DNA of 64,000 bases, from the NCBI GenBank assembly GCA_965197645.1, contig OZ240219.1, positions 3,147,321-3,211,320 on the forward strand. Direction: 5' to 3'. Below the pieces are notes generated by a model that did not search any database, was not told where the DNA came from, and saw nothing but the letters and a program-made list of their open reading frames with translations. How positions within the stretch are numbered: the first letter of the stretch is position 1; each line of letters starts with the position of its first letter. Shown here piece by piece: positions 25,448 through 59,182 of the stretch. The position numbers were made by a program, and so were the translations under genes. This stretch comes from Dehalococcoidia bacterium. Lineage in GTDB: Bacteria; Chloroflexota; Dehalococcoidia; Plut-88900.

Positions 25448-25532
25448 TGGTGCGGAAGGTGGGACTCGAACCCACACGCCCGAAGGCACATGATCCTAAG
25501 TCATGCTCGTCTGCCAATTCCGACACTTCCGC
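25448..25532 (-). tRNA. tRNA-Leu (anticodon TAG)
   Basis: Minus strand GCGGAAGTGTCGGAATTGGCAGAC...CATGA-CTTAGGA-TCATG, long variable arm, GTTCGAGTC T-loop, encoded CCA. Confidence 0.96.
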
Positions 25533-31365: not shown

Positions 31366-31390
31366 GACTCCTCCTCTCTCGAATCCTCTG

Positions 31391-31426
31391 AAAGCAAAAA
31401 GGCCCGCCTCCTGTCGGGAGCGGGTC
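31391..31426 (-). terminator. Intrinsic terminator just upstream of the integrase start
   Basis: Minus strand GACCCGCTCC-CGACA-GGAGGCGGGCC followed by TTTTTGCTTT. Confidence 0.75.
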
Positions 31427-31519
31427 TGCGAGTAGTACAATCTATTCGCATCACCTGTTACCGCAGGTGGCGCCACGACCCGGGGTGTTAGCGCACCGCC
31501 GGGTCAACTTCTGCTTCGC

Positions 31520-31676: not shown

Positions 31677-34600
31677 TTATAGCAAGCCTTCCTCTGCGGC
31701 TTTGGCCAACCAATAGTCTGCGTGCTCTCTAGTGAAAAACAATGACACTGGGGTCTGACGCTGAGGAGGTCGGATAGTGACGACCTTGCCTTGAATAGAA
31801 TTGGACACGCCATTGTCTGAGTTGAACATCAGCCTGCGGTTGCTCGCCTGGCCCAAGACTCTAGTGACCTCAGTCCGAGTAACGGCATCGCCAAGTGCGC
31901 CATGGTGGTAATGACATAGCAGGAGGATATTACCTGCATGGCGTGCTCCACCAGCGTTAACGTGATCGCAATGTTGCGCTTCCATAATCCGGCGTCGGTT
32001 TTCGGAGTCCTCTACATAGCTCGATAGCGGTGCCAGCGTTTTGGGTTCGGCCCAGGCAAGACAGGCTTGGCAATGCCACGCATATTGCTTCTCTTTGAGG
32101 TCGGCTATTTGAGCATTCTCATCTGCCGACTGGGGCCGACTACTCTCTCTTCTAGGCTTGCTGACATTTCTGATGACTCCATCACCTTGAGGAATGGGAC
32201 CGGGGTTAGGAATGTTTTTCGACGGGTCAGGCTTAGGCACTGAATGAATAGCTGATGTCGCCGAAGGACTTGAATCCAAACTATGTTGACTAGTGGTATC
32301 GTCAATCTCGCCATCCTCTTGAGGTTGTACCCCGTCTAAATGCTCCAGAGGATAGCGCTCTCTCATCTCCATCTTGTACGCCTGATCAAGCACGGAGCCA
32401 TAGTACTTCTTGGGCAGTTCGAAGACGTGTTCAGCGACTACGTCGAAGAAGACCCCCCGTAGGTCGGTATCTGATCTGATCCAGAGCGTACCGGACTCTT
32501 TGTCGAGCTTCCCATATACTGGTACGGAGAACCTGTACCGCCCTAGCTTATAGATAGCAGTGACAGAATCCGCAGTCCTTATGCCTTGAACACTTGCTAG
32601 GCGTTCACGCCAGTTGCTCCTGAGCGCGCTCTCGGAAGTGTCAAGGTCAAGTTTGGCAAGCCGCTTTTGTAGCTGCCTTCCCTTCAGACCAGATTGGAGA
32701 GAATCAAGAATCCCCTTAAAATCGAAGTTTGAAGGGAGTAGGTTTTGTCTCCCCGTGCCAACTGCCCCTACTGGGTCCCCCACATAGTCGCTCAGAGTGC
32801 GCAGTCCGAGCTCTCGTAGGTGGGCAGTGACCGGCTCCCTTACTCGGCGACTCTCTACGATCGCCATCTCCACGGGGCGCCTCGTTGGATGCCGTCTTAT
32901 CGCCTCTTCAAGCTCTTCGAAGTCAGGGATTACAACCTTGCTCCTTGTCTTGGTAGCATCCGACTTCGTCACAAGCCGTACTCTGGCTCCGTCGGACTCG
33001 ATCATAATGAACGGAACCTGAGGAAACTCATCGCTCCATGCACGTGGTCCAGATTGATGATTGATATGACGTAGGATTTGATCAGCATGCCTAGCGACGA
33101 CGTCAGTATCCTGAGATGCTAGCCACTGGAAGAATCTTCTAGAACTATTGAAGTTGGGTGTCCCACCAACGACACCAACAAGTCCGTACAGCCTTTGCGT
33201 TTCAGCATTGATGTCAGTCACTGGCACACGTATCTTCCAGTCGCCCCAGAAATCGCGACTTCCTCGCAACGCAATTTCATTTGGAGAGCGCAGTTTCCCT
33301 TCTACCGGAATGCAGGGGACATCAATCAATCCGACGGGTTCTATGCTTTCGCGTTTGGATTGCCTCACGTACTCTTGAAGCCTCGGTACATGTGCATCAA
33401 AGCGGGCACCATCCCCTTGAAGGGTGTCAACGATCTGATCCGCAGAGGGAGCAGTCCGCGGTTTCCAGCCATCGATTCGATCCAAAATGCTAATGGGCCG
33501 GTCAATGACGTGCTCATCTAGCAAATTAAGACGCTGCAACCCCCCTGCATCTCTTACCAATTCACCAGGATCTCTCAGGCTTCCGCCTTTATCTAAGGCA
33601 CAGCGGTAATCTTTATCTAGCTCACCGAGGTATTCCTTTAGCCGTGGTGTAGAAGAGGCAAGGACGGCAAGATCTTTCTCAACCTTGTGAAATTCACGTC
33701 GTTCATTAGCGGTCAGTTTCCTATCACGGGCAAATCGGTCAATATGCTCTATCAGGAATTCCTCAAACTCCTGAAATGAAGGCGTATGCCTGAAAGTCAG
33801 GCGGCCCCTGCCAGCCCTGCTTACAAGGCCAACTTTCAGGAGCTCGCGAGAGGGTCGCACTATTGCGTTTCCCATGACTGACGCGACGCGAGGACTGCGA
33901 GGCTCACAAAGACTATCCAATGGCAGTAGGCTACCGTTGGCACTCGGCCACACTGGGAAGTTGGCGGTCCGTATAAGCGTTTGTCGCCGCTTAACGGTTC
34001 TCCAGTTGTCGCGGAGCCAAGTCCAAAACGACTTACGCTCCAAAAGTGAAGCCGTCTCAAGCTGGGCTTTATCGAGGTAGTCCTCTAACCTGAATGGTTT
34101 GGGCTTCCATGCTCTCTTCCTCAGAAGGCGATGGCCTTGCAATTCTGGATGGAGGAGGGGCACATACTCTTGCTGACCGAGATTCGGCGGCAGGTTTACA
34201 GCGCTGAACATCCCTACTAGCGGTCGTGCCCTAGACCTTTCGTCGGGTAGGTAGGTGTTCTGTATGACTTCCGATTCAGATTCCAGTTTATCTCTTTGAA
34301 TAGTCTCGTATAGGACATCCAAGTAGACCTTGGCGACTGATGGGTTACCGAGAGCTGCCTGCCATTCAAACTTGTCCTGCCAAGGAAAGTAATTGGCTTC
34401 CAGTTTAGGCTGTAGTCGTTCGGCAACATCGTTTTCGTCAAAAGTGATCACATCCGTCTTGTTGACCAGACAACTCAAAATAGGGCCAGGAACGGTCCTG
34501 TTGATTTGGTCTTCTTCCCCTGGGCAAATCTCCGAGAGCAGAGGGGCAATTCGCTCTTGATCCCATGTGAACATCGGCAAGACGACTCTACGAAGAGTGC

Positions 34601-35882
34601 CAGCCGATATCTTCCTGGGGCCTAAGGCAATCCGCCTAATGCGCTTTGATACTTTTGACACCCTGTCTGCAAGTGGTAACGCTCGTCTGTCGATTGTGCG
34701 CTCTACAAGGTCATTGAGCGTTTCATCTTCTGCATCACCAGGACTGGCCATGTAGAGCTCCATCGCCCTTCCACCATGACGTTGGAGCAGGTAGCTAGAC
34801 ATGATATCCACAAGCGCGTCTTTGCACGCATCGTCAATATAGGCGTTCAGGGAATTCATATGGCTGGTGCCGTGTCTCCCAGCATCAGAAATGTACGGAC
34901 CTGAGAAGTGGATGCCCACGCCGGTAAGTGAGGCGTCCGAAGTGCCGTCATATCCTATCGGGTACCTCCGAACTCCTTTGGCTGACTTAGGCATGCCTCT
35001 CTTGTCTGTGAGCCACGCTATCTCCGCTAAAAAGGATTTCCTGTCCCTAAAGAAGAAGTCTGGTATCTCTGGCCGCTTTCCCGCAGGGAACGGTAGCCTG
35101 AATACACAGGCCCGTTCGTGGATTACAGTTGAAGGAACGCGGGGTGCCTTCGAGGAAGTGTCACATTCCCTACTGAATACGCCAAACCGTCTCTGGCCTC
35201 TGCCAGTGACGGTCCGTCCTCTCTTGGCTCGCCAATGAATCTCGACGGACCCCAGAGCATGGTGGCTCAGAGAAAGTGTGTACTGATCACGAAGTCCAGG
35301 ACGAACTACGCCCAACAGTCTGTCTGGCAAAAGCTCGCATGCATTCCTGAAGAGTCCTTCTAGGGAACTCTCTTCAGGAATCCCAATTGTCAATTCTTCA
35401 CCCTTCGTAATTACTAGCTCTTGCTTCCGATAAGGAACTTCAATCGAGCACCCGATAGGCGGAGCGCTACCGTCCGGGACCGGCTCCCGAAGTGTTCCTG
35501 GCGATGGCTGCTTGTCATAGCCGTCCTTGTACAGGGTCTGGATCATTCTGAGGCCATCTGATCGCACAATGATTTCATCGCCGAGCCAGAAACACGCCTT
35601 TAGGCCGTGGTTCTTGATTCCTATTTGGAACCGTTTGCTTTCAACCTCGACACCCGCACCCATGACAAAGGATAGTCGTCGCCAGCCGTTCTCAGTCACG
35701 GGTTCACCGTCTCCACGACAGATTAGTCGGTCAGCAGTGAAGGTGATGGACGTACGCGATGCATTGGCGTCCAAATCATTCTGAATAAGCTCAACTATCA
35801 GGTCATCAGAGTGCAAGCCCCTAAGGAACTGCCAAAACTGTGGCTCCGCGTCAAACCTCTGGACGAATTCCGAAACGTACAA
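31677..35882 (-). CDS. 1401-aa protein: N-terminal sacsin-like GHKL ATPase, C-terminal HNH nuclease
   Basis: IVELIQNDLDA, IGIKNHGLKA, IHFSGPY (sacsin/NOV-like); CQAC...EAQHCDH...GNILLLCHYHH. Confidence 0.75.
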   Translation of the reverse strand: MYVSEFVQRFDAEPQFWQFLRGLHSDDLIVELIQNDLDANASRTSITFTADRLICRGDGEPVTENGWRRLSFVMGAGVEVESKRFQIGIKNHGLKACFWLGDEIIVRSDGLRMIQTLYKDGYDKQPSPGTLREPVPDGSAPPIGCSIEVPYRKQELVITKGEELTIGIPEESSLEGLFRNACELLPDRLLGVVRPGLRDQYTLSLSHHALGSVEIHWRAKRGRTVTGRGQRRFGVFSRECDTSSKAPRVPSTVIHERACVFRLPFPAGKRPEIPDFFFRDRKSFLAEIAWLTDKRGMPKSAKGVRRYPIGYDGTSDASLTGVGIHFSGPYISDAGRHGTSHMNSLNAYIDDACKDALVDIMSSYLLQRHGGRAMELYMASPGDAEDETLNDLVERTIDRRALPLADRVSKVSKRIRRIALGPRKISAGTLRRVVLPMFTWDQERIAPLLSEICPGEEDQINRTVPGPILSCLVNKTDVITFDENDVAERLQPKLEANYFPWQDKFEWQAALGNPSVAKVYLDVLYETIQRDKLESESEVIQNTYLPDERSRARPLVGMFSAVNLPPNLGQQEYVPLLHPELQGHRLLRKRAWKPKPFRLEDYLDKAQLETASLLERKSFWTWLRDNWRTVKRRQTLIRTANFPVWPSANGSLLPLDSLCEPRSPRVASVMGNAIVRPSRELLKVGLVSRAGRGRLTFRHTPSFQEFEEFLIEHIDRFARDRKLTANERREFHKVEKDLAVLASSTPRLKEYLGELDKDYRCALDKGGSLRDPGELVRDAGGLQRLNLLDEHVIDRPISILDRIDGWKPRTAPSADQIVDTLQGDGARFDAHVPRLQEYVRQSKRESIEPVGLIDVPCIPVEGKLRSPNEIALRGSRDFWGDWKIRVPVTDINAETQRLYGLVGVVGGTPNFNSSRRFFQWLASQDTDVVARHADQILRHINHQSGPRAWSDEFPQVPFIMIESDGARVRLVTKSDATKTRSKVVIPDFEELEEAIRRHPTRRPVEMAIVESRRVREPVTAHLRELGLRTLSDYVGDPVGAVGTGRQNLLPSNFDFKGILDSLQSGLKGRQLQKRLAKLDLDTSESALRSNWRERLASVQGIRTADSVTAIYKLGRYRFSVPVYGKLDKESGTLWIRSDTDLRGVFFDVVAEHVFELPKKYYGSVLDQAYKMEMRERYPLEHLDGVQPQEDGEIDDTTSQHSLDSSPSATSAIHSVPKPDPSKNIPNPGPIPQGDGVIRNVSKPRRESSRPQSADENAQIADLKEKQYAWHCQACLAWAEPKTLAPLSSYVEDSENRRRIMEAQHCDHVNAGGARHAGNILLLCHYHHGALGDAVTRTEVTRVLGQASNRRLMFNSDNGVSNSIQGKVVTIRPPQRQTPVSLFFTREHADYWLAKAAEEGLL

Positions 35883-35884
35883 TG

Positions 35885-36736
35885 TCAGTTCTCCTCCAAC
35901 TGTCGCTGTCGAAGAAGTTCGATATTGATACTTTTGATAAGTTTCAGCCGGGCCTCAGTAGAAAGGTTAGACACGTGCGCCAATGCCACAGAGTCGAGGT
36001 TTAAGCCTTCCGCAACCGACACGACCCCGTTCTCACAGAGCCGGAACACTCCCCCATCAAATGCCCTATGGCAATATGCACACAGACCAATCCCATTGGC
36101 GGGATTTGCTCGATTCTTCACGTCAGTTGAATACCTGCTGATGTGCGCCACATCTAGCACTTCTCTGAGTGTCGTTCCGCAGATTGCACAGGCAAAGCCT
36201 TGGCGCAGCAGCACTGTCTGCTTGAAGCGCTCTACGCTGTGCCTCCTCTTGACGAATGACCAAGCATCAGGCACAGAGTAGTCTGGAGCGTCCGGCGGTG
36301 CAATCGCTATGCAATGCCGCCGGTATGCCAACTCGATGATACTTGTAAACAAGTCAGGGCTGACTTGTGCTATGGAGCGTGACCAGCCCAACTTGTTCAC
36401 ATCCGTGATCCCCAGTGACGCTCGATTCCTCTTACCCTCAACATTAAATGGGCGAATATCCAGCGAACGAGCGTACTGAACAAAGTCGCCAAGTGTAGCA
36501 GTAAAGACACGACTAACTCTGAATTGGCCTTGTTCTGTGGTTTCGGCGGTTCTAGTTGACACCTGGGTAACAATGCCGTGTCCCGCGAAACCGTAACCAC
36601 CGCCCCGCTTGTCAAGGTACACAAAGGAGTCACCGGGCTTCACCCTAACGGAGTGTCTATTGTCGTAAACATAGGTCTGCCCCGGTTCGTCAGGGTACTG
36701 CTCTTGCTCAGATTGCTTGAAAATCCAGAAGGTCAC
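35885..36736 (-). CDS. PUA/EVE-like domain + HNH endonuclease (putative modification-dependent nuclease)
   Basis: N-terminal FWIFK...VKPGDSFVYL...FAGHGIV; C-terminal CAICG...LDVAHI...NGIGLCAYCHRAFD. Confidence 0.75.
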   Translation of the reverse strand: MTFWIFKQSEQEQYPDEPGQTYVYDNRHSVRVKPGDSFVYLDKRGGGYGFAGHGIVTQVSTRTAETTEQGQFRVSRVFTATLGDFVQYARSLDIRPFNVEGKRNRASLGITDVNKLGWSRSIAQVSPDLFTSIIELAYRRHCIAIAPPDAPDYSVPDAWSFVKRRHSVERFKQTVLLRQGFACAICGTTLREVLDVAHISRYSTDVKNRANPANGIGLCAYCHRAFDGGVFRLCENGVVSVAEGLNLDSVALAHVSNLSTEARLKLIKSINIELLRQRQLEEN

Positions 36737-36746
36737 TGTGAGTCCC

Positions 36747-37682
36747 TCATTTGTTCATGATCCAAGCTATTCTTCCATCAAGCCAATTAATCAACTCAAG
36801 CTTTAAGGGGCCAGGAATCCATACAAGCTCGGGGTCAGCTTGTGCCAGAAGCCTATACCTATCGACCAACAGACCGCCGGCTCGATTGCTTTGGCGACGC
36901 AACTCTCGCTCATCAAGTGCAAAAGGAAGGGAGAAGGCTTTGTTGGGAGGAGCTGCAAAGTCCACGATCTTCGCCCACTCCTTGATGTTCGGCTCGTTAA
37001 CCTTCTCTGCCCAGTTCTTTCCGCTTGCGCATTGGGCAAGGTAAACTGGCGTACCGCCACGGGAATCGGGGAAGCGTAGATGCCACACGAGGTCGACCCC
37101 CGCATCCTTGGCGTTCAAATCGAGGTAGTCATCGGGATTGCCTTTCCGTTCATCGATGGCCACTGTCAGTTCATCGATGACTGAAGCCAACTTGGTGGTG
37201 TTATCCGTGCTCCATCCTGTCTGGAGGAACCTCCAACCACTAAAGCGGGCCTCCATGGCTGCCCTCGTGATGGACTCAAATAGCCTGCCTTGCTCAACAT
37301 AGTTGGGTCCAAATGTGGTATGCCAGTCCTCGTATCTGGACCCGAGCGATACGACCAAGCAGTAGCTATGGGCAGGAATATCTTGCCAATTCACCCTTCT
37401 GGCCATCCACCTGTCTTTGAAGACAATGGGAGCGTGTGATCCCATCCAGGACATGCGTCTCTGGAGAGCCGTCCACGCGGACAACACAAACTCGGATGCG
37501 CTGTCTTGATCCTCAAAGACTTGCTCCTGGACCAGATGGTCGACGACGTCGGTTTGGGAGAGTTCTTCCTCCAAGAACAGGTTGGTTGCCTCCAGCCAGT
37601 CAAGAAACACGGAGTTTTCCAGGTCTGGATCACGAGCAACCTTCAGGAAATCGCTTGGGTGGCTAAGCATTGTCACCGTCAC
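36747..37682 (-). CDS. Restriction-endonuclease-fold protein (PD-QxA variant, Mrr-like)
   Basis: GRLFE...KDAGVDLVW...YLAQCASGKNW pattern; overlaps the ParB-like gene. Confidence 0.6.
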   Translation of the reverse strand: MTVTMLSHPSDFLKVARDPDLENSVFLDWLEATNLFLEEELSQTDVVDHLVQEQVFEDQDSASEFVLSAWTALQRRMSWMGSHAPIVFKDRWMARRVNWQDIPAHSYCLVVSLGSRYEDWHTTFGPNYVEQGRLFESITRAAMEARFSGWRFLQTGWSTDNTTKLASVIDELTVAIDERKGNPDDYLDLNAKDAGVDLVWHLRFPDSRGGTPVYLAQCASGKNWAEKVNEPNIKEWAKIVDFAAPPNKAFSLPFALDERELRRQSNRAGGLLVDRYRLLAQADPELVWIPGPLKLELINWLDGRIAWIMNK

Positions 37683-38790
37683 CCTTCCCTAGTCCGATCT
37701 GCTCAGCAATCGATGGGAACTTGGATACAAGCTCCTTTGCGTTTAGAGCCAGCCGCAGCATAGCCGTCTGAATCGGCTCAGAATGCACGTACAAATGCAC
37801 TTTGCTCAAAGCCAACTCCATTTGAATGCTGGCCTCTTTGAGTTGCGTCTCAATTTCCTCATTCTCGACTCCGGCCTTTTGCAGAGCCACGTCAAAGCTG
37901 GGCACAGGCGAAGACCTGAGATACTCGACAGCCTCAGGATTCGACAGAATCTTGGCAAAGCTGCTAATGTACCTGGAATCAGCGAAGAGCGGCCGCTGCT
38001 TGTCCGTACCAAACAACCACCTCGCAAAGTCTGACAGATTGTGCTCCATTGCATGTGATACTGGGACCTTGGCTTCAATGGGCTCAACTCCTAGGTCAAT
38101 ACCTAGAAAGGATCGAACACCCCCTTCCCGAAGGGAAAGGAAGAGCACACTAAATCTGCTCTCAAGACCCTGCTCAGATACTTCAATGTCGAGAGACTCA
38201 ATCTGTTTCACAACGCGGTAGGCGATATAGTTTCTTCGTACTGTATCGGTCTGCATTCCAATCTGTTTACGGACAGTGTCATAGGACATCTCCATATCAT
38301 CTACCATGCTGGCGATGAACTCTGCCTTTTGTGTTGGGTCCCATTGCTTGATTCCCGTTACGTGCCTAAAGCCAAGGTAAGCTATGACATCTGCGCGCGA
38401 GTCAGCAAGGATGTAGGGTATTTGGATGAATAGCTCACTGCTGGGCGTAACGCCTTCTACCAGCGTGCGCCAAGTCCTCGAAGGATGATTGCCGTCAAAC
38501 GCGCGTTGAAGATACCTCAACGCAGCGATTCGGCGATTGCCCTCCACCACTACTAGTGTGTCAGGCTGGTTATACAGCCCTTCTTTGACGACAATTACAG
38601 CTTCTTGTGGCCAGAATCCGTTCTCCAAGAATGAGACGGCCAACTCTTCCAAGTTCCAACCTCGCATTAGCTCCAGGACGCGCTCCTGAGTAGCCAACGG
38701 TTCAGCAGCACCGAGGCCCAATCGAGGGTTACGGGGGTCAAGTGAGAGTTGCTCTAAGGAAACAAACTCAATTGTGTGAGAAAGAGGCAT
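37663..38790 (-). CDS. ParB/Srx N-terminal domain protein
   Basis: LSLDPRNPRL, SFLENGF, VVVEGNRRIAAL, LGFRHVTGIKQW; GAGGTG RBS before ATG at 38790. Confidence 0.8.
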   Translation of the reverse strand: MPLSHTIEFVSLEQLSLDPRNPRLGLGAAEPLATQERVLELMRGWNLEELAVSFLENGFWPQEAVIVVKEGLYNQPDTLVVVEGNRRIAALRYLQRAFDGNHPSRTWRTLVEGVTPSSELFIQIPYILADSRADVIAYLGFRHVTGIKQWDPTQKAEFIASMVDDMEMSYDTVRKQIGMQTDTVRRNYIAYRVVKQIESLDIEVSEQGLESRFSVLFLSLREGGVRSFLGIDLGVEPIEAKVPVSHAMEHNLSDFARWLFGTDKQRPLFADSRYISSFAKILSNPEAVEYLRSSPVPSFDVALQKAGVENEEIETQLKEASIQMELALSKVHLYVHSEPIQTAMLRLALNAKELVSKFPSIAEQIGLGKGDGDNA

Positions 38791-38892
38791 GATCTGCACC
38801 TCGCTTATGGGTGTTCAATTGCTTCTGTGACATGGTTGCAGTCCGTCCCGGATTTGGGCGACCAGCTTGAACTATGTTAGTTGCATGCCACA

Positions 38893-39597
38893 TTAGACTA
38901 CTCGCTTTTGCATTCTGGCCTCACGAGAGCCGACGGAGCAGTCCCGTAACAGAGGACAGCTGGGGCAGTCGGGCTTATTGGGGCGGCAGTAGGCCGACCC
39001 TATGTCGATGAGGCCCAAGTTGAACTCGCGTGCATGGCGGCGGGGGAGAAGTCCATTGGCGAACTCCGCAAGGCGAGTGTCGGAATATGCCGGACCGGCG
39101 CTAGGAAAGCCCAGTACACGCCGCAGAACACGCCCCGATCCTTCGTCAATCATCGGTAGGGGATGATTGAAAGCCATGCACAAAGTCGCTCGGGCACTGT
39201 ACCTCCCGATACCCGGGAGCGATTGCAGTTCCCCTAGGTCTTCTGGCACTTGTCCCCCGTAGTCTCGCAGCAAGCGGCGCGCGCACTCGACCAGTCTGTC
39301 AGCACGTAGGACGAGACCGAGAGGTCTAAACCACCAACGCAGAGCTTCGACATCGGTCGCTGCCAGTGAGGCAGGGTCAGGGTATGTGGTAACGAGATGG
39401 GTGTAAGGGCTGACCACCCTGGCTGCCTGGGTCTGCCGAAGCAAGACCTCTGCTATCAAAATGTGGAACGGGTTCCTAGTGTCCCGCCAAGGGAACTCTC
39501 GCCCATTGCTACGGAACCAACTCACGACAGAGGCTGCGAGCTCTTTGCTGCTCCCCAGAGCTCTGTCTCTGTTCGGCTGTCGTTCTGCTTGAATCAC
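38893..39597 (-). CDS. HhH-GPD DNA glycosylase with 4Fe-4S loop (MIG/short MutY-like)
   Basis: GREFPWR, AEVLLRQT, LPGIGRYSA, MID, CRPNKPDCPSCPLLRDC; no MutY C-terminal domain. Confidence 0.85.
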   Translation of the reverse strand: MIQAERQPNRDRALGSSKELAASVVSWFRSNGREFPWRDTRNPFHILIAEVLLRQTQAARVVSPYTHLVTTYPDPASLAATDVEALRWWFRPLGLVLRADRLVECARRLLRDYGGQVPEDLGELQSLPGIGRYSARATLCMAFNHPLPMIDEGSGRVLRRVLGFPSAGPAYSDTRLAEFANGLLPRRHAREFNLGLIDIGSAYCRPNKPDCPSCPLLRDCSVGSREARMQKRVV

Positions 39598-39600
39598 CGC

Positions 39601-40587
39601 TCACCTACTCACTGAAATGGGGACAGCGCACCATGGACGCAACCACGCATCTAGCTCCGTCGCCGTGACTCTCGGCGCTGTTGAGAGGTCCACCTTGTAA
39701 CGGGTCTCTGTTACTCCTGGAGGCTCTGGTACCCGAAAGTGCGGGATATCCATCGAACGGAACCAGGCGAGGTTCTGCTCTGCTTCAGCAGCATCGATTA
39801 CTGGACCAGGCTCTGCTGATGACTCCATGCCAGCCTGGCGCACTGCTTTCTCAAGCTTCAGGTAGTCAGGCGTTCCGAGCAGAGCATTCCTACATTCGTC
39901 GATCAACTGCCGTAAGCTGAGGCCAGAGTCATCCTCGGTCGCAACTATCGATGCAACAACTATCTCTTCGCCTTCAGTGGCAAATATCTGCCTGTGGGAG
40001 AAGTGGTGCATGCGCTCTGGTCGCGTCGTGACCTTGACCTCGACTCGATTGCGGCCACAAGAGAAGTCGAATCGCCTCTCAACTTCGCTGTGCCAGAAGG
40101 GGGCCCAGAATCGAAAACCCTGCACACGGCTCATCATGAACAGCTCACCCCATAGGCCGCGTCTCTCCGCCTGGAGGTCTTTGGCTGGCGTGACAGCGAA
40201 TAGGCGGACCATAGAGCGGAAGAACGAAGTTAGAGCATGCCGGTCTACCCTTCCCGCCTCATGGCGCGCCAAGAATGCCTCCGCGAGCAAGAGAAAGGTC
40301 TCCACATCCGCCGAGTCCGATGTCTCACAGCGTAGAGCGTGCAGCAGCTCAACCCTCGGGGAGTCGTACATGCCGGCCAGGCTGTAGCTCTGCCCAATGT
40401 GGAGAGAGAGCTTGTTAGTGCGCAGCGGGGGCTCTTGAGCTCCCGCTTCAGCCACAACAAAGAGGACGGGGTAACCGGTAATATCAATCCCAAGGAGGAC
40501 TCCGTAGCTTCCCGGTACGGGAGCAACAGTAAATGCGTGGCCAGATGGCCTGTCCCTAAGCTCTGATAGAAGGGCGGCGAGCCTCAT
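39601..40587 (-). CDS. PD-(D/E)XK protein, DUF4420-like
   Basis: RGLWGEL...W......RFDF.....VEVKVT; ATGA-coupled to the Z1 gene. Confidence 0.85.
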   Translation of the reverse strand: MRLAALLSELRDRPSGHAFTVAPVPGSYGVLLGIDITGYPVLFVVAEAGAQEPPLRTNKLSLHIGQSYSLAGMYDSPRVELLHALRCETSDSADVETFLLLAEAFLARHEAGRVDRHALTSFFRSMVRLFAVTPAKDLQAERRGLWGELFMMSRVQGFRFWAPFWHSEVERRFDFSCGRNRVEVKVTTRPERMHHFSHRQIFATEGEEIVVASIVATEDDSGLSLRQLIDECRNALLGTPDYLKLEKAVRQAGMESSAEPGPVIDAAEAEQNLAWFRSMDIPHFRVPEPPGVTETRYKVDLSTAPRVTATELDAWLRPWCAVPISVSR

Positions 40588-42734
40588 AGGTTGTCATCCC
40601 GGACTACATATCTGAGGTCGAAGCGCGGATCCTCGCTCGGCACAAAAAGGCCGAGCGCTGTGGTCTCTACCGGATCGGATAGTCCATCCCCGCTAACTCG
40701 AATCACGTGCACCTGGAGCTGGACACGACCCTCGTGGATGTTCTCGTCGCCGGGATAGAACCTGGGATCGGGGGGATCCCTGCCCGGGGTGCGACCCTGC
40801 ATGGGGTTCACGCGACCTTGCCGCTTGGTTCTCTCTCGTGTTCGACCTCCCGTCATATATACAAGGTCCATAGATGGGAGCACCCCTGCAAGCAGCAATC
40901 GTGCCAGGTACTCACTTGTATAGGATGCGTCCCAGTCGGTCCCCTCTGCTTCGATTTTGGCTAGCAGCCCTGCTATGACCTCTTCAGTCGAACAGTCCTC
41001 AGCAACAAGGTGCTCGACGTTCCCAAAGCGCTTGAGAGACGTCTCCTCTCGCTGGGCAAAGAAAGTCCTCACTGATTGGAGATTGCGTGCAGCGACGACC
41101 TCATCCTCTACGAGGCGGTTCTGTATGTCCCAGCCTCCGCCTCTGAATCGCCGATAGCTAGCTACATTCGACCTGGTTGGCTTTAGGCCCATGTTCATAT
41201 CCAGCGAGAGCATGCGAGGCCACTCCCGAATGGATAGTCGTTGCCGCTGGTTTCGGCGAAGCGCCTCCCAAAAGTCGTCCTCATGCCTCAAGAGCTCTGT
41301 GTAGTCGTCTCGAAGCTGCGAGGTTACGAATATGCGACAGACATCAAGGTAGTCATTCTTGTAGCCGAACCATCGAGCTCGCTGCTCCATGGTGTCGGCA
41401 TTTGTCTCGTTCTTCGCCCGGCGAGTGATGTACGTGACCGCTAATCCCTCAATTGTGACTCCTCGGCCAAGCATGTTGCCGCCGACGAGGATGTTGTTCT
41501 TTAGCCTGAAGGGTGTCCCAATGGGGTCGCGGCCCAAGGGTAGGCTATTGACCATCCACACCTCGACGAGCCAAACCTCGTCACGCAACTGCTCGAGCAC
41601 CTCTTCCCAAGCAGGGGGATCTTGTACCGTGGAGCACAGATCGTCATAGGCCGCCCGCATGAGAGATATCAGCTCATGTCTAGCGGGATCGTCGTCCGAA
41701 AGGCTGAGACTCTCACGCCAAAGCCCAATGAGATTGCGGACAGCTGTCTGGAGTCTCTCGTGGTCGGCACGTAGGTTGCTGTTGTGAATGAGCATCGAAT
41801 GCCATGCATTGGACTCGCGTCGGTGTCGAATAGCGCCGCCGACAAGGAAGGTCGCGATGGCCTGCCTGAGGCCATCGGGGATTCCCCAGACGTGCTCGTC
41901 TTCAGCCTCTGCCAAGGGCACGGGCCTCACATATCGATCGCGATCTGACCCGAAGAAAGTGGCTCCGCCACAGTATCCGTGTCCCGGCTCAACGAGAACC
42001 CCAAAATCAGGTGAGAGGCCATCGATCCCAGATATGAGAAGGTTCGCTTGAGGAGTTGCTGTGTACGCCACATAGGCGTGGACGCGAAGAGCAGCCCTTA
42101 GCCTAAGGATGCTCTCATAGATAGCAGATCGTCTCCCGCGGCGGAACTGGGTGTTGAGGGACGCTTCGTCCCCCTCATCATCGATGATGAGGGTTGGGAA
42201 GCCACTGAGCTCGGAGGTGGCTAGGACCCGCCTTGCATCTTCAAGCCGCTTGCGGTTTTTCAGCACTACGATCAATGCGTGCCCACCACCATGAAGCACG
42301 CTTCTAATGACCTCAGCGTCTTGGGGGATTGGGTTCCTGAAGGGCGTTAGATTCGGGCGCCTAGCTTCCAGGTCGTTGTACAGCCGGGTGTAGTTCTGCT
42401 CCAAGAGGGGGTTCTTCGTACCAGCCAGCACTACCGTTATACGGTACCCGTTGTCTATGGCCAGGGCGATTAGAGATGTGTAGGAGAGGGTTTTGCCACT
42501 CTGGACCTTGCCAAGCGCAAGTCCAGTGACTCTCCTATCGTTGTCCGCTGGAGTTGGGCACCGACCAAGAATTGATGCGGCAGTCTCTACAACATCGTCC
42601 CACTCGTCGTCGCCGACACGCTCCTGATACCTGCTCCTCAGGCGTTGAATCTCTTCACCATCGATAGATGGCCCCCAAAGATCCGTTGCCGTCGACAAGG
42701 GATCAATACCGATAGTCATGCTAGGCTCGACCAT
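40584..42734 (-). CDS. Z1 domain-containing SF2 helicase-like protein
   Basis: GKVQSGKT, IIDDEGDEASLNT, YTATPQAN, HSMLIH, GGNMLGRGVTIEGL, DTMEQRARWFGYK. Confidence 0.9.
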   Translation of the reverse strand: MVEPSMTIGIDPLSTATDLWGPSIDGEEIQRLRSRYQERVGDDEWDDVVETAASILGRCPTPADNDRRVTGLALGKVQSGKTLSYTSLIALAIDNGYRITVVLAGTKNPLLEQNYTRLYNDLEARRPNLTPFRNPIPQDAEVIRSVLHGGGHALIVVLKNRKRLEDARRVLATSELSGFPTLIIDDEGDEASLNTQFRRGRRSAIYESILRLRAALRVHAYVAYTATPQANLLISGIDGLSPDFGVLVEPGHGYCGGATFFGSDRDRYVRPVPLAEAEDEHVWGIPDGLRQAIATFLVGGAIRHRRESNAWHSMLIHNSNLRADHERLQTAVRNLIGLWRESLSLSDDDPARHELISLMRAAYDDLCSTVQDPPAWEEVLEQLRDEVWLVEVWMVNSLPLGRDPIGTPFRLKNNILVGGNMLGRGVTIEGLAVTYITRRAKNETNADTMEQRARWFGYKNDYLDVCRIFVTSQLRDDYTELLRHEDDFWEALRRNQRQRLSIREWPRMLSLDMNMGLKPTRSNVASYRRFRGGGWDIQNRLVEDEVVAARNLQSVRTFFAQREETSLKRFGNVEHLVAEDCSTEEVIAGLLAKIEAEGTDWDASYTSEYLARLLLAGVLPSMDLVYMTGGRTRERTKRQGRVNPMQGRTPGRDPPDPRFYPGDENIHEGRVQLQVHVIRVSGDGLSDPVETTALGLFVPSEDPRFDLRYVVRDDNL

Positions 42735-44292
42735 ACTCGACCTCGATCTCGCCAGCCCGCCTGAGTACCTTGTTCATGTACATGCGAAAGTCGCTTGGGC
42801 TTACAAGTCCATTGGAAGAGATCTGAAGAGCCATGCGCTCGGCCAAGGCTAAGGACAGGACAAACTTCTGAAGCAAGGCAAGTGAGTCCCTGTTTTCTAG
42901 GTAGGGTGCTAGAAAGGGATGGGCAGTGTTTAGGAAGACATCAATCTCGTTCTCACGCGGGACGCTTAGCTGCATCCAGTGGGCGTCACTTAGCTGGTCT
43001 TGCCAGTGAAGCCTGAATAGCCAGACCTCCGCGCCGACCTCAAGACGATACGAGACAGGACCACTGCTGGCAGCTCGAATCAGCTCGGTGTCGGCGCGCT
43101 CCGTCTCCGCGGACTTCGGAGGATCAGGCAGTCTGATCTCCTCGTGAACTGCGTTGCCGAACCTCTGGTCGGAGAAGACCTGCCTAAGGGGCTCCGACAC
43201 AACCTCCATGACCGGCTGGGTGATGGGCTTGCCGCGCTCTCGGTAGCCCTCGGCTTTGTCCATGTAGTCTTGGCAGACTCGCTTCAGTTGCTCAATGAAA
43301 TCATCCTCCAGCCCACCGGACCAGTCGAAGGCATCCTTCGCTTGCGTTACCGGCCAAGCATCCATCTTGATCTCACCGACAAGACGCTGAGAGCGAAAGG
43401 TATTGCCCTGGCCGAAAATCTCGGCCGGCTTGTAGCCTTCCCCCGGCCCCCCCACGATGACCCGTCCGCGCCTTAGCAAGGCGAACCCCGCATCCCGCTG
43501 GCTTCCAGGCGTTCGCACTCCAACCCAGCCGTTGGCGCGAAGTGTCGTTCCTTCAGACTCCCACGGCACATCAATGGTGAAGCTCTTTCTCCAAACGTTA
43601 TTGACCCCGCCTGGCAAGTCCTCTTCAAGGAAGCTGGGCTCCTGAAATGTGATGGGCTCGCCATTCCAGAGAATCTGGATCTCTCCTGAGCGAAGGTCCT
43701 CTCGGTACATGCTGCCAAGCTGGTCCTTCACTCGGCCTTGCGTTCTTCCCCGGATTGGCTTGTAGAGTCCCTCGATCGTGATAGACGTGTAGTGGGTCTC
43801 CGGCGCGGAATGTCCCACCTCGACGGCAATGCTGTCCATATGACTGTCCACAAGCTCTGGTACGTGTACACGGGCCGTGTACTCACTGGCAGAGCCGAGC
43901 TTACTGCTTCGAATCGTCCAGGTTGTACCGAACCAGCAAGCTGCCGTCTTGAGCCCCATGCCGAACTCGCAGCGCCCTGTGGGATCTGGGGGTGGCCTAT
44001 CAAGCACAACCGCCCTGGTGAGCTCCTCCATCTCCATTCCATGCGCGTTGTCGACTATCGTCAGCGCATTTCTATCGCTGTCATAGGCGACCTCGACTCG
44101 TAAGCTGCCGGGGCCTCCTTCGAGCTTGTATCCTCCAATCAGCTCCGCTCGATGGTCGTAGTAGCTCTGCGTAGAGTTGTCTACGAACTCGGCAATGGCG
44201 TACCACGGCTGATAGCTCAGTCGCCTGTAGGTAGCGTAAACGCTTACGGCTGGTCGAATGTCTATTGTTAGCTGGCCCTCAGAAGCAACCAT
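42721..44292 (-). CDS. MORC/MutL-like GHKL ATPase
   Basis: AIAEFVDNS, DNAHGM, EFGMGLKTAA, QRLVGEI; GAGGAGG RBS before ATG at 44292. Confidence 0.9.
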   Translation of the reverse strand: MVASEGQLTIDIRPAVSVYATYRRLSYQPWYAIAEFVDNSTQSYYDHRAELIGGYKLEGGPGSLRVEVAYDSDRNALTIVDNAHGMEMEELTRAVVLDRPPPDPTGRCEFGMGLKTAACWFGTTWTIRSSKLGSASEYTARVHVPELVDSHMDSIAVEVGHSAPETHYTSITIEGLYKPIRGRTQGRVKDQLGSMYREDLRSGEIQILWNGEPITFQEPSFLEEDLPGGVNNVWRKSFTIDVPWESEGTTLRANGWVGVRTPGSQRDAGFALLRRGRVIVGGPGEGYKPAEIFGQGNTFRSQRLVGEIKMDAWPVTQAKDAFDWSGGLEDDFIEQLKRVCQDYMDKAEGYRERGKPITQPVMEVVSEPLRQVFSDQRFGNAVHEEIRLPDPPKSAETERADTELIRAASSGPVSYRLEVGAEVWLFRLHWQDQLSDAHWMQLSVPRENEIDVFLNTAHPFLAPYLENRDSLALLQKFVLSLALAERMALQISSNGLVSPSDFRMYMNKVLRRAGEIEVEYGRA

Positions 44293-44302
44293 CCGACCTC
44301 CT

Positions 44303-45667
44303 CTAGCCGGCGCTGACAGCGACAGGGCTTTGAGCGCTTCCCTTACTGGATTCTTCAACGCGCAGAAGTCTCCTGGTGATCTCATACACAACGTCTACGT
44401 GTACCGCGTTCCCGAGTGCCTTGAACGTCGCCGTCCTGGATTCAGGAACACACAGGTCATCGTCGAAGCCCTGCAGCCGGAGCCCTTCGACCCTGGACAG
44501 ATGTCGCTGCTCAGGTCCGAGGATTGGAATCTGTGTGCTTGTCATTGCGACGAGCGACGGGCAGCTTCGGTATCTCTTGACGCGCAGTCCAGAGGGCCTG
44601 AACTGCAGAATGTGGTTCCACAGGTTCCTTTCCTCGCCCTGACAGTTCCACTCAAGCTTGCGGAGAGATGGAGGGAACGTACGAAGGCTAGCCAGCCACT
44701 GTTGGGGGAGAGCATTCCGAATCGATGTATACCAGTCACGATTCGACCTGATGAAACGAACCTTCCAATCCGGGAACTCCACAGCCTCAGTCCGTGCGTA
44801 CCTCGGTAAGGCCTCGAAGCTTACTCGGGACGAGACCCTCCCATTCTTGCTATCCGTCTGGCCAACTGTCGCAGCGAGCAGTTGAGCCCAAGGAGTAGTC
44901 CCTTCGTAGGCGTAACGTGCACCAAACTCATCCGCCCATATGGGAAATGACGGCAGGTCAACCTTCTCCTCCGGGAGAGCATTGAGGAAGGAGTTCCAGT
45001 GATCGATGCATCGCCGGTGCTGGTCTAAGATGAGTGTTTCGCTGTAGTCGGACTGGGACAGGTCGTCCTTATGCTGCACGATGGCAGACATTGAGGTGAG
45101 TGCACTTCGGTTTCTCGGAGGGAAGGTCTCTTCGGGCAGGCCCTCACGAGAGGCTACTGCGAAGAAGCGCTCTCGGTGATGTGGAAACCCGAGATGGTGT
45201 GGGGAGAGCAGCCCTTCACCACCACTGGCTATATGCTCTGTTCCCTTGACGTCATAGCCGAGCCTTCGCAGGCTGGTCTTGACGATGCGCCACGTTTGAC
45301 CGTCGTCATGACGCTCGAAGTTTCCAACATTCTCTAGAATCACATACGTAGGCTTATGCGCCTCCAGGATCTCCAGAATCTCATGGAAGAGTGTCCCTGA
45401 AGTCTTGTCCTTCATTCCGACCTGAGTCCCTGACTTGGAGAATGGCTGACAAGGGAACCCGGCGCACAGTATGTCGTGAGGTGGTACATGGTCCTTGGCT
45501 TGTCTAATGTCTCCGAGGATCGCAGGTCCCTCGGGGAAGTTCCGGTTGTAGACTTGCTGAAGCTCGCTATCAACCTCAGAGGCAAAGACGCACTCGTGTC
45601 CGAGTTGCTCAAGTGCAAGACGGAATCCACCAAGACCTGCAAAGAGATCGACAAATCTCATTGCCAA
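44303..45667 (-). CDS. DNA (cytosine-5)-methyltransferase
   Basis: DLFAGLGG, AGFPCQPFS, LENV, PHHRER, LRLQGF, LGNAV (motifs I, IV, VI, VIII, IX, X). Confidence 0.96.
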   Translation of the reverse strand: MAMRFVDLFAGLGGFRLALEQLGHECVFASEVDSELQQVYNRNFPEGPAILGDIRQAKDHVPPHDILCAGFPCQPFSKSGTQVGMKDKTSGTLFHEILEILEAHKPTYVILENVGNFERHDDGQTWRIVKTSLRRLGYDVKGTEHIASGGEGLLSPHHLGFPHHRERFFAVASREGLPEETFPPRNRSALTSMSAIVQHKDDLSQSDYSETLILDQHRRCIDHWNSFLNALPEEKVDLPSFPIWADEFGARYAYEGTTPWAQLLAATVGQTDSKNGRVSSRVSFEALPRYARTEAVEFPDWKVRFIRSNRDWYTSIRNALPQQWLASLRTFPPSLRKLEWNCQGEERNLWNHILQFRPSGLRVKRYRSCPSLVAMTSTQIPILGPEQRHLSRVEGLRLQGFDDDLCVPESRTATFKALGNAVHVDVVYEITRRLLRVEESSKGSAQSPVAVSAG

Positions 45668-45739
45668 CGCCCTAGTGTGGAGTAGACGTCTGAAAGCAGC
45701 CCTTTCATATGGTCCTCTTCACTACTGCAACCGTATCGC

Positions 45740-45901
45740 TCAAGAAGTCTCGGCCTGGCCCTTGTAGAAGGCGAGAATCTCATTGAGCTTCTGACCGATT
45801 GTCTTTCCTTCAAGTGCGGCCTGGGCCTTGAGCCACCGCCAAAGATGTTGATCCACCCCGCGGATGTTGGTCGGTCCGGCGGAGGTACGCTGAGAGATCA
45901 C
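45740..45901 (-). CDS. 53-aa ribbon-helix-helix-like regulator (absent from the ORF track)
   Basis: GAGG RBS + GTG; MISQRTSAGPTNIRGVDQHLWRWLKAQAALEGKTIGQKLNEILAFYKGQAETS fits the RHH pattern. Confidence 0.7.
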   Translation of the reverse strand: MISQRTSAGPTNIRGVDQHLWRWLKAQAALEGKTIGQKLNEILAFYKGQAETS

Positions 45902-45921
45902 TGAGACACCTCGTTCCTTCT

Positions 45922-45975
45922 TGTCATGACAGGTGCGAGCTTATCAAATGTATTGTTTGTAGTGCACACTGTCAA
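45922..45975 (-). promoter_or_regulatory. Promoter and palindromic operator of the defence operon
   Basis: Minus strand TTGACA-17 bp-TACATT; perfect palindrome TGTCATGACA at 45922-45931. Confidence 0.6.
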
Positions 45976-46151: not shown

Positions 46152-46763
46152 CTACTCTATCGGTGCAGCTTGACCTCCCAGCGAAAAGTTCGCAGTTCGG
46201 TATGCCCCTGCCCACCAGTCGGCGCAGTAACTGCGGGATATCCCAGCCTCGATTAGAGGGTAGCGGTTCGTCATCCACCGGTCGCGGGAGGTCCTCATGC
46301 GTATGGCCTCGTCGGTAGAGATGCCGAGCCACAGTTCGACGGTGGTTCCGGCGGGGACGCGCTGCCTCGGCCTGAGTCCCAGCATCTCCCGAATCCTGCG
46401 TCGTATGGGCCTGATCTTGTAGTTGTCGGTGCATTGGCGCCTGCCGATGCCGTCGCCCTCCCCGTCGCCTCCCTTCAGGTAGACGGGTATGTCCACGTAG
46501 TTTCGGGAGCCCGAGTGGTTGGTGAGGGCCTTCACGTCCTCGCGGAGACTGCGCCCGTTGTCCACGACGTGCAGGGGAAAGCTCAGCCGGTCTTTCAACC
46601 ACGCCAGGTGCTCGTAGATGCTGGGGGGCTCCCACCGGGTGTCGGCGAAGATGGCGCAGTCGGGAACGCGGTCGAATGCCCCCTCGTTTGCCATGAGCGC
46701 CATGACCGAGGACGGGACGCCCCCGCCCAGGCTGATGACGGTGAGGGTAGGCTGGGGACGCAT
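46152..46763 (-). pseudogene. 3'-truncated PAPS-reductase-like (PP-loop) gene
   Basis: ISLGGGVPSS, IFADT.WEP, RQCT..YKI.PI, GISTDE..RM, RYPLI; ends before the expected Cys-rich C-terminus, where composition shifts. Confidence 0.65.
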
Positions 46764-47838: not shown

Positions 47839-48097
47839 CGAGCTTGAAGAGCTCGTGAAAGTCCTCGAATCCGAGGGCCTTGAGCATCCTTCTGCGGATG
47901 CGTCCGGAGGGTGCGCGGCCTGCCGTGACCAGCTTGGACATATAGCCGGAGCTGATCCCTATCTCCTGGGCGAGCCAGTTCTGGGAGCGGTTCAGCAGCG
48001 CCAACCGCGCCCAGAGCGACCGGGCGTTGAGGCGCACTGTTGAGCGAGCGCCCCGCCTCCGGCGGCCTCTCGGTTCTTCGTTCCGTTCCGGTTCCAT
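47810..48097 (-). CDS. XRE-family HTH regulator
   Basis: SQNWLAQEIGISSGYMSKL..GRAPS; GGAGG RBS. Confidence 0.85.
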   Translation of the reverse strand: MEPERNEEPRGRRRRGARSTVRLNARSLWARLALLNRSQNWLAQEIGISSGYMSKLVTAGRAPSGRIRRRMLKALGFEDFHELFKLDEEEQDGDP

Positions 48098-48163
48098 GTG
48101 TTGAAGACCTCCTTTCGGTACTGGGCGGGAGCCGCCGCTGCACTCCCGTCCCGTACGGCGTGT

Positions 48164-52358: not shown

Positions 52359-52374
52359 GGTGTTATTCCTTTCT

Positions 52375-54652: not shown

Positions 54653-54671
54653 AGAAGTGGTCTCCTCTGCT

Positions 54672-56698: not shown

Positions 56699-56725
56699 GT
56701 TCTGTTCCTCCTTCCTCACGTCCGC

Positions 56726-59137: not shown

Positions 59138-59182
59138 TAATCCCCGGCGGTGACTCGGGGTTTTTGGAAGGAGGCGTTGACG

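Follow-up and report, generated by a model that had tools for sequence, protein, structure and literature searches.

A cargo block on a Dehalococcoidia integrative conjugative element: a probable stack of three separable defence modules that includes an unnamed ParB-like/g08 gene pair

A 64,000-nucleotide stretch of a Dehalococcoidia genome (assembly GCA_965197645.1, contig OZ240219.1; hereafter the window) carries ten consecutive open reading frames (ORFs), all on the minus strand at 31677-45901, within an integrative conjugative element (ICE). They are numbered g01 to g10 and encode, in that order, a ribbon-helix-helix (RHH)-like protein, a C5 cytosine DNA methyltransferase (MTase), a MORC-like GHKL ATPase, a DEAD-Z1 protein, a DUF4420 protein, an HhH-GPD glycosylase, a ParB-like protein, a 311-amino acid protein of no named family, an EVE-HNH protein and a large GHKL-HNH protein. 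We read the block, with a probability of about 0.6 for the overall picture, as variable ICE cargo that combines three separable defence modules, probably transcribed together: module A (g01 to g06), module B (g07 and g08) and module C (g09 and g10), with the module B pair serving as a modification-blocked restriction effector. An original prediction, made from the letters of the window, had proposed that the ten genes form one undescribed system. All ten ORFs were found, co-oriented, where it had placed them, and none of the libraries used names the ten-gene set as a whole. The idea of a single system was only partly supported by the comparison with related loci, in which the tail is separable: the g07/g08 pair occurs mostly with a methylase only or with dnd genes, and among 14 related genome loci g09 is present in four and g10 in one.

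The g07/g08 pair and its modification-gene neighbours

The ParB-like gene g07 (37663..38799) is followed by g08 (36747..37682), whose likely true start is Met5 at 37670. We chose g08 as the probe for related loci since flanks of 10 kb to either side take in the entire operon. Relatives of g08 were aligned and used for profile scans, which gave 14 genome loci and, with the best 80 of 124 metagenome relatives, 94 loci. The ten window proteins were run by tblastn against the 14 genome loci and against all 94, and the ORFs of all 94 were clustered. Together with one plasmid and ~640 genomes, these loci make up the comparison sample.

g07 adjoins g08 in all 14 genome loci and in 66 of the 68 loci with at least 1200 nucleotides upstream of g08. 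Among the 47 loci with at least 1500 nucleotides on both sides of g08, a C5 MTase lies within 8 kb in 40, Vsr or an HhH-GPD glycosylase in 25, any of MORC, Z1 and DUF4420 in 13, and dnd genes in 3. Four of the 47 have neither a C5 MTase nor dnd genes: an N6_N4 methylase stands directly upstream of the pair in L012, the contig ends inside MORC in L018, a convergent AspBHI-like HNH gene lies near the pair in L054, and the fourth, L009, is weighed below. The commonest order in metagenomes is the ParB-like gene, g08 and then a C5 MTase 24-90 nucleotides downstream, or ~0.5-1 kb downstream of g08 where Vsr lies between. When we scanned 62 of the 134 listed ORFs that immediately flank the pair and methylase in 28 such loci, no restriction-endonuclease Pfam domain appeared among them; 37 matched Pfam, mostly housekeeping families (MurJ, ABC transporters, sulfate permease, GHMP kinase), and 25 had no match. 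Since the scanned flanks lack such a domain, the pair and its methylase look like a self-contained insert in which the methylase has no other visible restriction partner.

In L045, L049, L058 and L065 the pair adjoins a convergent dndB-C-D-E-A cluster, recognised by DndB (4e-132), DndE (2e-29), PAPS_reduct, an SMC-like ATPase and a class V aminotransferase. The pair tracks modification genes of three chemistries (C5, N4/N6 and phosphorothioation), not one modification. Two of these loci, L049 (3894-17422) and L065 (695-15615), hold in one stretch a helicase, an SMC-like ATPase and a small ORF upstream of the pair along with the convergent dndBCDE-A cluster. The upstream genes resemble PbeA, PbeC and PbeD as described in the available text of PMC6459918, which would give one phosphorothioation module two candidate restriction partners.

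Two further observations concern individual neighbourhoods. A small ORF of 132-173 amino acids follows g08 in three loci without a C5 MTase (L009:10991-11512, L010:2603-3109, L012:10977-11375); it has no match in Pfam, NCBIfam or PADLOC and might act as a third component or as a substitute partner. In L076 (2495-8690) the genes divergent from the pair encode a C5 MTase, Vsr, a 456-amino acid protein with an McrB-like N-terminal domain, and proteins of 682 and 335 amino acids without a Pfam match; this may be another multi-subunit restriction set that shares the methylase.

No Pfam (even at E 0.5), NCBIfam or PADLOC family matched g08, and a profile search of Protein Data Bank (PDB) sequences returned 0 matches. 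The family is nonetheless large and of constant length (~310 amino acids): a library of 50%-identity clusters contains 2253 representatives at E <= 0.001, 995 at E <= 1e-10 and 237 at E <= 1e-30. Across 43 diverse members, 26-40% identical to the window protein, P9, D197, G221, K227, W236 and R275 are invariant and E136, D206, Q217, C218, A219 and D274 nearly so. The resulting pattern, E...D...QxA...K, fits a variant PD-(D/E)XK site in a protein with a putative nuclease fold. In an AlphaFold model built from 20 sequences, confidence is confined to residues ~20-150, which resemble winged-helix DNA-binding domains (Z ~5). Residues 128-279 align with the catalytic part of SdaI (Z 4.7), a weak row on a poor region of the model. 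We take the winged helix, SdaI and Mrr_cat, the last named by a neighbour search described below, as leads only towards a restriction-endonuclease fold.

The ParB-like assignment of g07 comes from PADLOC, where residues 38-296 match PDC-M38A (2e-19) and the first ~160-220 residues match PD-Lambda-5_A models (up to 3e-16). HTH_ParB was weakly matched in 5 of 17 relatives (best E 0.0037), and in the Atlas neighbour clusters of g07 12-46% of members carry ParB_N, some of them fused to AAA_15/AAA_21 ATPases. The relatives share the motifs LDPxNPRLG, VVEGNRRxAAL and GFRHVTGIKxW, of which NPR and GNRR may resemble the boxes with which ParB binds nucleotide. When g07 was searched as a profile against PDB sequences, only chance-level rows came back. 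We found no account of the ParB-like/g08 pair in the literature searched, a search whose scope did not take in REBASE and supplementary tables. A paper on Caulobacter ScmA/Vsr proved unrelated. The three BsuMI restriction subunits of Bacillus subtilis, which are similar in size, might resemble g07 and g08, an idea on which nothing here relies.

Composition and separability of the modules

Module A is not new: it is a restriction-modification (RM) type predicted in 2008, whose motor has been characterised in CglI. Its leading gene, g01 (45739..45901), encodes a 53-amino acid RHH-like putative controller with a sub-threshold match to FitA-like RHH (E 0.01; 16 bits against a cut-off of 27), and it is kept 5' of the MTase in L001-L004, L006 and L008 at 53-91% identity. 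g02 (44303..45661) is a C5 MTase (PF00145, 4.2e-62; TIGR00675, 2e-58; PADLOC DruM2-type model, 4e-85) and g03 (42721..44292) a GHKL ATPase (PF13589 HATPase_c_3, 2.4e-14; 53.9 bits against a cut-off of 25). The label MORC-like for g03 is taken from the operon context as given in the available part of PMC2292703, and the protein could also be a paraMORC. g04 (40584..42734) is a DEAD-Z1 helicase-like protein, a putative translocase of the H.CglI type (PF10593 Z1, 7.6e-46), that matches the REBASE-derived PADLOC model "Type II helicase domain protein" (Helicase_II) at 3.9e-56 over residues 48-529 and MzaC more weakly, at 4e-34 and in the Z1 part only. It contains GKVQSGKT, corresponding to the unusual Walker A of the H.CglI DEAD-Z1 motor as reported in the part of PMC5861437 available to us, and DTMEQRARWFG, corresponding to the DThhQXuRhFG of MORC-operon Z1 helicases in the available part of PMC2292703.

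The remaining module A genes are g05 (39601..40587), for a DUF4420 PD-(D/E)XK nuclease-like protein (PF14390, 1e-20), and g06 (38893..39597), for an HhH-GPD glycosylase with a predicted Fe-S cluster loop (PF00730 and HHH). Along its entire length g06 also matches the PADLOC model "Type II nicking endonuclease" (2e-37), and it stays under the NCBIfam cut-off for MutY/Nth models. It occupies the position that Vsr has in related loci and is a probable T:G repair partner of the 5-methylcytosine (5mC) methylase. The set from the RHH gene to g08 recurs in the window's order in 6 of the 14 genome loci (L001-L004, L006, L008) at 53-94% identity.

g09 (35885..36736) encodes an EVE-like domain of the PUA superfamily followed by an HNH nuclease domain (HNH_2, 2.4e-8), and is type IV-like. 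Its model has a predicted local distance difference test score (pLDDT) of 88.6, and Foldseek placed VcaM4I (6yex) on top (E 3e-9, probability 1.00), followed by TagI, ScoMcrA and EVE/ASCH/YTH domains, the latter at probability ~1.0. In sequence, the HNH part matches that of VcaM4I at E 0.0017, and the two proteins are 16-17% identical.

g10 (31677..35882) encodes a protein of 1401 amino acids that starts with a putative GHKL-type domain and ends in an HNH pattern. The match to the NCBIfam sacsin N-terminal domain (NF047352) is sub-threshold (9e-8; 32.4 bits against a cut-off of 50). In 14 homologues E31, N35, D38, G57 and G59 are invariant, within the conserved N-terminal pattern ELIQNDLDA / GDGEP, as are C-terminal H/N/H and Cys residues. 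No Pfam family matched even at E 0.5, including the C-terminal NOV_C/DUF3883, and there were 0 matches among PADLOC families and 0 in a profile search of PDB sequences. Homologues of ~1400 amino acids fall into 108 clusters, none with a functional family name; the three that carry a name from their source are two "hypothetical protein" and one (P0196) "HNH endonuclease signature motif containing protein". No relatives were found in a scan of viral contigs. Among the homologues of g08, g09 and g10, equal lengths of the longest contig hint that contigs are shared, too indirect a sign to be counted.

Taken together, the domain calls of the original prediction held above the curated Pfam cut-offs for the MTase (PF00145), the GHKL ATPase (PF13589), Z1 (PF10593), DUF4420 (PF14390), the glycosylase (PF00730) and HNH_2. 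The PUA/EVE-HNH call for g09 was borne out by an N-terminal PUA-superfamily fold, the C-terminal HNH and the VcaM4I match, whereas the RHH and sacsin calls stayed below threshold and the ParB-like call was weak.

The module C genes are inconstant. Among the 14 genome loci only L002 carries all ten genes in the window's order, and there a 1.25-kb insertion, with an ORF that clusters with an rve-family transposase, splits g10. g10 was found in 2 of 401 sampled genomes of the window's phylum and in 1 of 57 from the order to which G098 belongs; none of 5 other pair-holding genomes had it, nor did any of 176 from the phylum of G404. The G098 copy of g10, 80% identical, comes after a split remnant of a g09-like gene and lies next to a type I RM system and an IS110 transposase, without module A or B; between hsdR and hsdS of that RM locus, which encodes HsdR, HsdS and HsdM (L097:5327-13336), lies a CAP12/Pycsar-type TIR-domain gene. 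Module C is a known type IV architecture joined to a rare GHKL-HNH protein, and it is variable. In L003 the slot that holds g09 and g10 in the window is taken by a full-length Tiamat gene directly after the pair (11889-15269; TmtA 1.5e-112, sacsin domain 1e-18, NOV_C). BLASTP found nothing between g10 and this TmtA, and hhalign of the g10 family gave a probability of 0.6%.

We then compared the occurrence of the pair with that of MTase-MORC-Z1-DUF4420. The two sets recur together in three gene orders, with core proteins at only 24-40% identity to those of the window. In the window clade and in L018 the MORC set lies upstream of the pair; in L013, L014, L074 and L093 it comes downstream of the methylase, and in L007, L023, L055 and L061 it is inverted. 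On a g08 tree (quick maximum likelihood, with Shimodaira-Hasegawa-like approximate likelihood ratio test supports only), MORC-bearing loci are scattered at several places among methylase-only loci, and the dnd-linked loci form one clade. A conjugative plasmid of the alphaproteobacterium Neorhizobium carries dcm, DUF262, Z1 and a "PD-(D/E)XK motif protein" followed by homologues of g07 and g08 (35% identity), both annotated "hypothetical protein". In the phylum sample, Z1 occurs in 16 of 401 genomes, a count that takes in the window's own genome and the unpublished genome G344. The g08 profile occurs in 5, four of them with distant relatives (E 4e-6 to 7e-17), and the two groups of genomes overlap only in that of the window. 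The pair and the MORC set attract each other, and neither needs the other. The check originally proposed, whether the tail stays syntenic with the core, gave a divided outcome: the pair recurs with the core in three orders and on the plasmid, but it stands far oftener without it, and g09 and g10 are inconstant. Because tail-core synteny is split in this way, we regard the block as a stack of separable modules.

Exchange within the operon also seems to have occurred. In L006 and L008, MORC and Z1 are 86-90% identical to those of the window and g09 ~75%, whereas the ParB-like protein is at 66% and g08 at 54-55%. This drop suggests that the pair was exchanged by recombination within an otherwise conserved operon.

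Read data bear on the variability of the cargo. Contigs of three DNA runs from different studies cover the block, and their summed depth rises at the g09/g08 boundary from 4.2 to 25.3, from 0.9 to 13.3 and from 1.6 to 5.6, a 4- to 15-fold step with the higher side at g08. Outside ~31.5 kb and ~46.2 kb contig depth is 10- to 400-fold higher still, hundreds to thousands beyond the cargo edges against ~20 inside, and contigs of other runs depart from the window at ~31337-31510 and 46172-46205. These depth steps and departures point to an abundant ICE backbone with a variable cargo slot in which g09-g10 are present in fewer strains, and they fit a slot that holds different cargo in most ICE copies.

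A proposed scheme and its alternatives

We infer the biochemical activities that follow, as well as the modification dependence of module B, from domain content and gene neighbourhood. Module A would be an ATP-dependent MORC/Z1-type restriction system from which methylation protects DNA. The C5 MTase would mark host DNA, the DEAD-Z1 protein would translocate on unmethylated DNA as H.CglI does, and DNA handling and cleavage would fall to the GHKL ATPase and the DUF4420 PD-(D/E)XK protein. In place of Vsr, the HhH-GPD glycosylase would repair T:G mismatches that arise from 5mC deamination, and the small RHH protein would be the controller. In module B, g08 would bind and cut DNA, with g07 as a nucleotide-dependent loader or regulator; the pair would act only on DNA without the host mark. 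That mark would come here from the single MTase shared with module A, and elsewhere the partner of the pair would be a C5 methylase of its own (Vsr present or absent), an N4/N6 methylase or dnd genes. Module C would be an accessory pair against modified phage DNA, formed by the EVE-HNH type IV-like enzyme and the large GHKL-HNH protein, the latter similar to Tiamat-like proteins that bear an HNH.

Module B is the novel part, a widespread unnamed pair that may represent an undescribed kind of restriction enzyme. A more specific version, which we hold only tentatively, is that the pair constitutes a new restriction class: a nucleotide-gated DNA clamp or loader of ParB type would license a winged-helix PD-(D/E)XK-variant nuclease on unmarked DNA, would be plug-compatible with 5mC, N4/N6 and phosphorothioate marks and would be able to share one MTase with a MORC/DEAD-Z1 nuclease. 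Through the shared MTase, one mark would then guard against two independent killing mechanisms.

Several points weigh against the picture of three modules with a restriction effector among them. On the side of the proteins, the position of the canonical (D/E)xK lysine in g08 is an alanine, and its model has a mean pLDDT of 65 with residues 158-279 mostly below 50. The rows of a wide structural comparison (VIA) reach only Z 4.7-5.9, Foldseek of the model against the PDB returned nothing at E <= 0.001, and the nearest named neighbours of an Atlas model of a g08 homologue, Mrr_cat endonucleases, are weak at a template modelling score of ~0.44. g07 matches no Pfam or NCBIfam family, and ParB_N itself is unmatched in Pfam. 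On the side of the loci, the metagenome sample is not independent (83 of 91 tree rows are distinct), and in L009 the pair has no modification gene within 10 kb. Two sequence-specific nucleases on one methylase would need the same specificity, which is awkward unless the modules cooperate or one of them reads the mark generically. If the EVE-HNH enzyme cut 5mC DNA, a 5mC methylase next to it could make it self-toxic, so the specificity of g09 must differ. Finally, the tight co-oriented packing, the one promoter-like site and the presence of all ten genes in L002 allow functional coupling of the whole block.

These last features also count in favour of one obligate ten-gene system around a single MTase: the genes are co-oriented with junctions of 2-10 nucleotides or overlaps behind one promoter-like site, the same ten stand in the same order in L002, and a 210-nucleotide contig of an RNA library, in which DNA carry-over is possible, spans the gap between the glycosylase and ParB-like genes. 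The distribution of the genes makes such a system very improbable. g10 occurs in one of the 14 genome loci and is interrupted there, g09 in four; five pair-holding genomes lack g10 anywhere, and elsewhere g10 occurs at 80% identity without the core. The pair itself is mostly found with a methylase only, and Z1 and g08 genomes overlap only in that of the window (G000). A looser coupling, in which the pair joins MORC-Z1-DUF4420 in a single machine at loci that hold both, with the pair recognising unmethylated sites and handing DNA to the translocase-nuclease, would explain why a single methylase serves both sets (67 MTase ORFs in 66 loci). It draws on the recurrence of the association in three gene orders with cores at 24-40% identity (L007, L013, L014, L023, L055, L074, L093), scattered on the g08 tree and present on the Neorhizobium plasmid. 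We still find it rather improbable, given that each set occurs far oftener without the other (13 of 47 loci; phylum sample) and that defence genes cluster in islands without interacting.

A different alternative questions the function of the pair and not its partners: g07 and g08 might be a regulator or maintenance device for modification genes, for example a DndB-like ParB-family repressor that, with a DNA-binding partner, adjusts the expression of methylase or dnd genes, or a stabilising addiction pair. DndB is described in the available part of PMC10853773 as a ParB-superfamily negative regulator of phosphorothioate modification. The g08 model is confident only over a domain that looks like a DNA-binding winged helix, the nuclease motif lacks its canonical lysine, and tracking modification genes of three chemistries would suit a regulator too. 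We consider this unlikely, although less so than either form of coupling. The dnd loci that carry the pair already encode DndB (4e-132), and the operon already has a candidate controller in the RHH protein, whereas RM systems are normally controlled by one small protein. In g08, D197, K227 and R275 (invariant) and E136 and Q217 (nearly so) look like an active site and not just a surface for binding, and the methylase of the minimal cassette has no other restriction partner among the scanned flanks.

If the pair is a restriction effector, many "solitary" environmental cytosine methylases would belong to complete RM systems, and ParB-type proteins would gain a role in discriminating self from non-self DNA. 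The g08 family is large and unmodelled in Pfam, NCBIfam and PADLOC, yet it is almost always tied to DNA-modification genes. The locus would be a natural case of two restriction machines and a type IV-like enzyme with one methylase, on a conjugative element abundant in sponge-associated communities, and as such is useful for studying how defence modules are stacked and exchanged.

Setting of the block and comparison with known systems

The spacing of the ten genes is as first described, tight with two larger gaps: 77 nucleotides between the RHH and MTase genes and 93 before the ParB-like gene, as measured from the coordinates, with the remaining junctions being gaps of 2-10 nucleotides or overlaps of 4-20. 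The single promoter that had been proposed fared less clearly. A sigma-70-like site 5' of g01 (45947..45975, minus strand; TTGACA-17-TACATT, 10/12), a consensus match only, does begin at the predicted start coordinate of 45975, but the region holds 4 promoter-like sites against 7.2 expected from shuffles. Neither promoter nor terminator counts in a scan of the region exceeded shuffles, and no internal promoter or terminator can be claimed. Because the site count is not above shuffles, a single promoter for the ten genes is plausible and not demonstrated, and co-transcription, which we infer, is to be read accordingly. In a sponge metatranscriptome library, short contigs fall on g01, g02, g04 and g07 and next to none on g10, and the 210-nucleotide contig mentioned above bridges the g06/g07 gap. 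DNA carry-over is possible in both cases, and since the library may hold DNA we infer from it neither that the genes are expressed nor that g10 is silent.

The window is the terminal 64 kb of one 3.21-Mb contig. Below 25.3 kb it contains housekeeping genes (alaS, aroC, lepA and others), and a tRNA-Leu gene at 25448-25532 marks the island edge. A large serine recombinase of the ICE (29734..31476, minus strand; Resolvase, Recombinase and Zn_ribbon_recom domains) flanks the cargo block, and at 48-63 kb the backbone encodes a coupling protein and a relaxase-like protein, along with a TraG/VirB4-like ATPase and a primase. The surroundings are an ICE, with a recombinase, a relaxase-like protein, a coupling protein and a VirB4/TraG-type ATPase beside a tRNA gene, which confirms the context first assigned to the block. 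The G+C content of the block is, as predicted, below that of the backbone (0.51-0.60 versus 0.66-0.74 at 48-64 kb). The backbone (48000-64000; 66-74%) in turn exceeds the host chromosome at 1-25 kb (~60%), which suggests that the element came from a donor of higher G+C content.

Three other ORFs lie at the edges, all on the minus strand. Directly beside tRNA-Leu, a gene at 25621-26940 encodes a Cache-domain protein in which the Cache match runs from residue 225 to the last residue; for this reason the protein may have been cut or fused by integration. An 880-amino acid ORF at 27040-29682 (G+C ~0.51) lies between the serine recombinase and the tRNA-Leu side; no Pfam or PADLOC family matches it, and it may be another cargo or defence gene. 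A PAPS-reductase-like ORF occupies 46152-46763 at the upper cargo edge.

Among known systems, module A is closest to the type 3 MORC operon of Iyer, Abhiman & Aravind 2008, which in the available part of that paper (PMC2292703) comprises a GHKL ATPase, a superfamily II Z1 helicase with DThhQXuRhFG, a restriction-endonuclease-fold protein and a cytosine methylase. The GHKL protein, the Z1 protein with its motif, the endonuclease-fold protein (now DUF4420), the cytosine methylase and a deamination-repair gene are all in common. Module A differs in that the repair gene is an HhH-GPD glycosylase instead of Vsr and an RHH gene leads the operon. The same part of the paper has 0 occurrences of ParB and does not describe the downstream pair. 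With CglI/NgoAVII, as far as they are covered in the available parts of PMC5861437 and PMC4267653, module A shares a C5 methylase and a DEAD-Z1 H-subunit with an unusual Walker A. Where they have a B3/PLD R-subunit it has DUF4420 and GHKL proteins, and the Pfam matches of the ten proteins include no B3 or PLD family.

A Z1 protein beside a GHKL ATPase and a DUF4420-like protein also recalls Mza. In the window, however, the MzaC match reaches 141.9 bits against an NCBIfam cut-off of 1500 and aligns in the Z1 part only, and a methylase is present. None of the ten proteins, g03 and g05 included, matched MzaA, B, D or E in PADLOC, and none is AIPR (MzaE) in Pfam or PADLOC, as the original prediction had noted. 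On these sequence comparisons, the locus is not Mza.

PD-Lambda-5 (Vassallo et al. 2022) is characterised in the available part of PMC9519451 as a compacted RM and abortive infection system with a methyltransferase domain. The pair is evidently something else, because only the N-terminal ParB-like part of g07 matches the A models and g08 matches 0 PADLOC families. The pair resembles DndFGH and PbeABCD, as these are presented in the available parts of PMC6459918 and PMC10853773, in adjoining dndBCDE-A in L045, L049, L058 and L065; Pbe genes are reported there beside methylases as well as dnd. It differs from them in that no sequence relation was seen between the pair and Pbe/DndFGH, pbe-like genes coexist with the pair in L049 and L065, and the window has no dnd genes.

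In module C, g09 has the same two-domain layout and size as VcaM4I, an EVE-HNH modification-dependent enzyme. The two are only 16-17% identical, and the operon of g09 holds a 5mC methylase. g10 shares with Tiamat-like proteins, as far as the available part of bioRxiv 10.64898/2026.09.30.754977 describes them, a length of >1000 amino acids, a predicted C-terminal nuclease and methylase or RM neighbours, and it has a putative sacsin-type GHKL start. It differs from TmtA in giving no match to the TmtA model and in having a C-terminal HNH pattern instead of the NOV_C/DUF3883 PD-(D/E)XK domain. The H/N/H and Cys residues of this pattern are conserved in g10, whereas the HNH-like type of Tiamat-like proteins is, according to the same part of that preprint, typically without catalytic residues.

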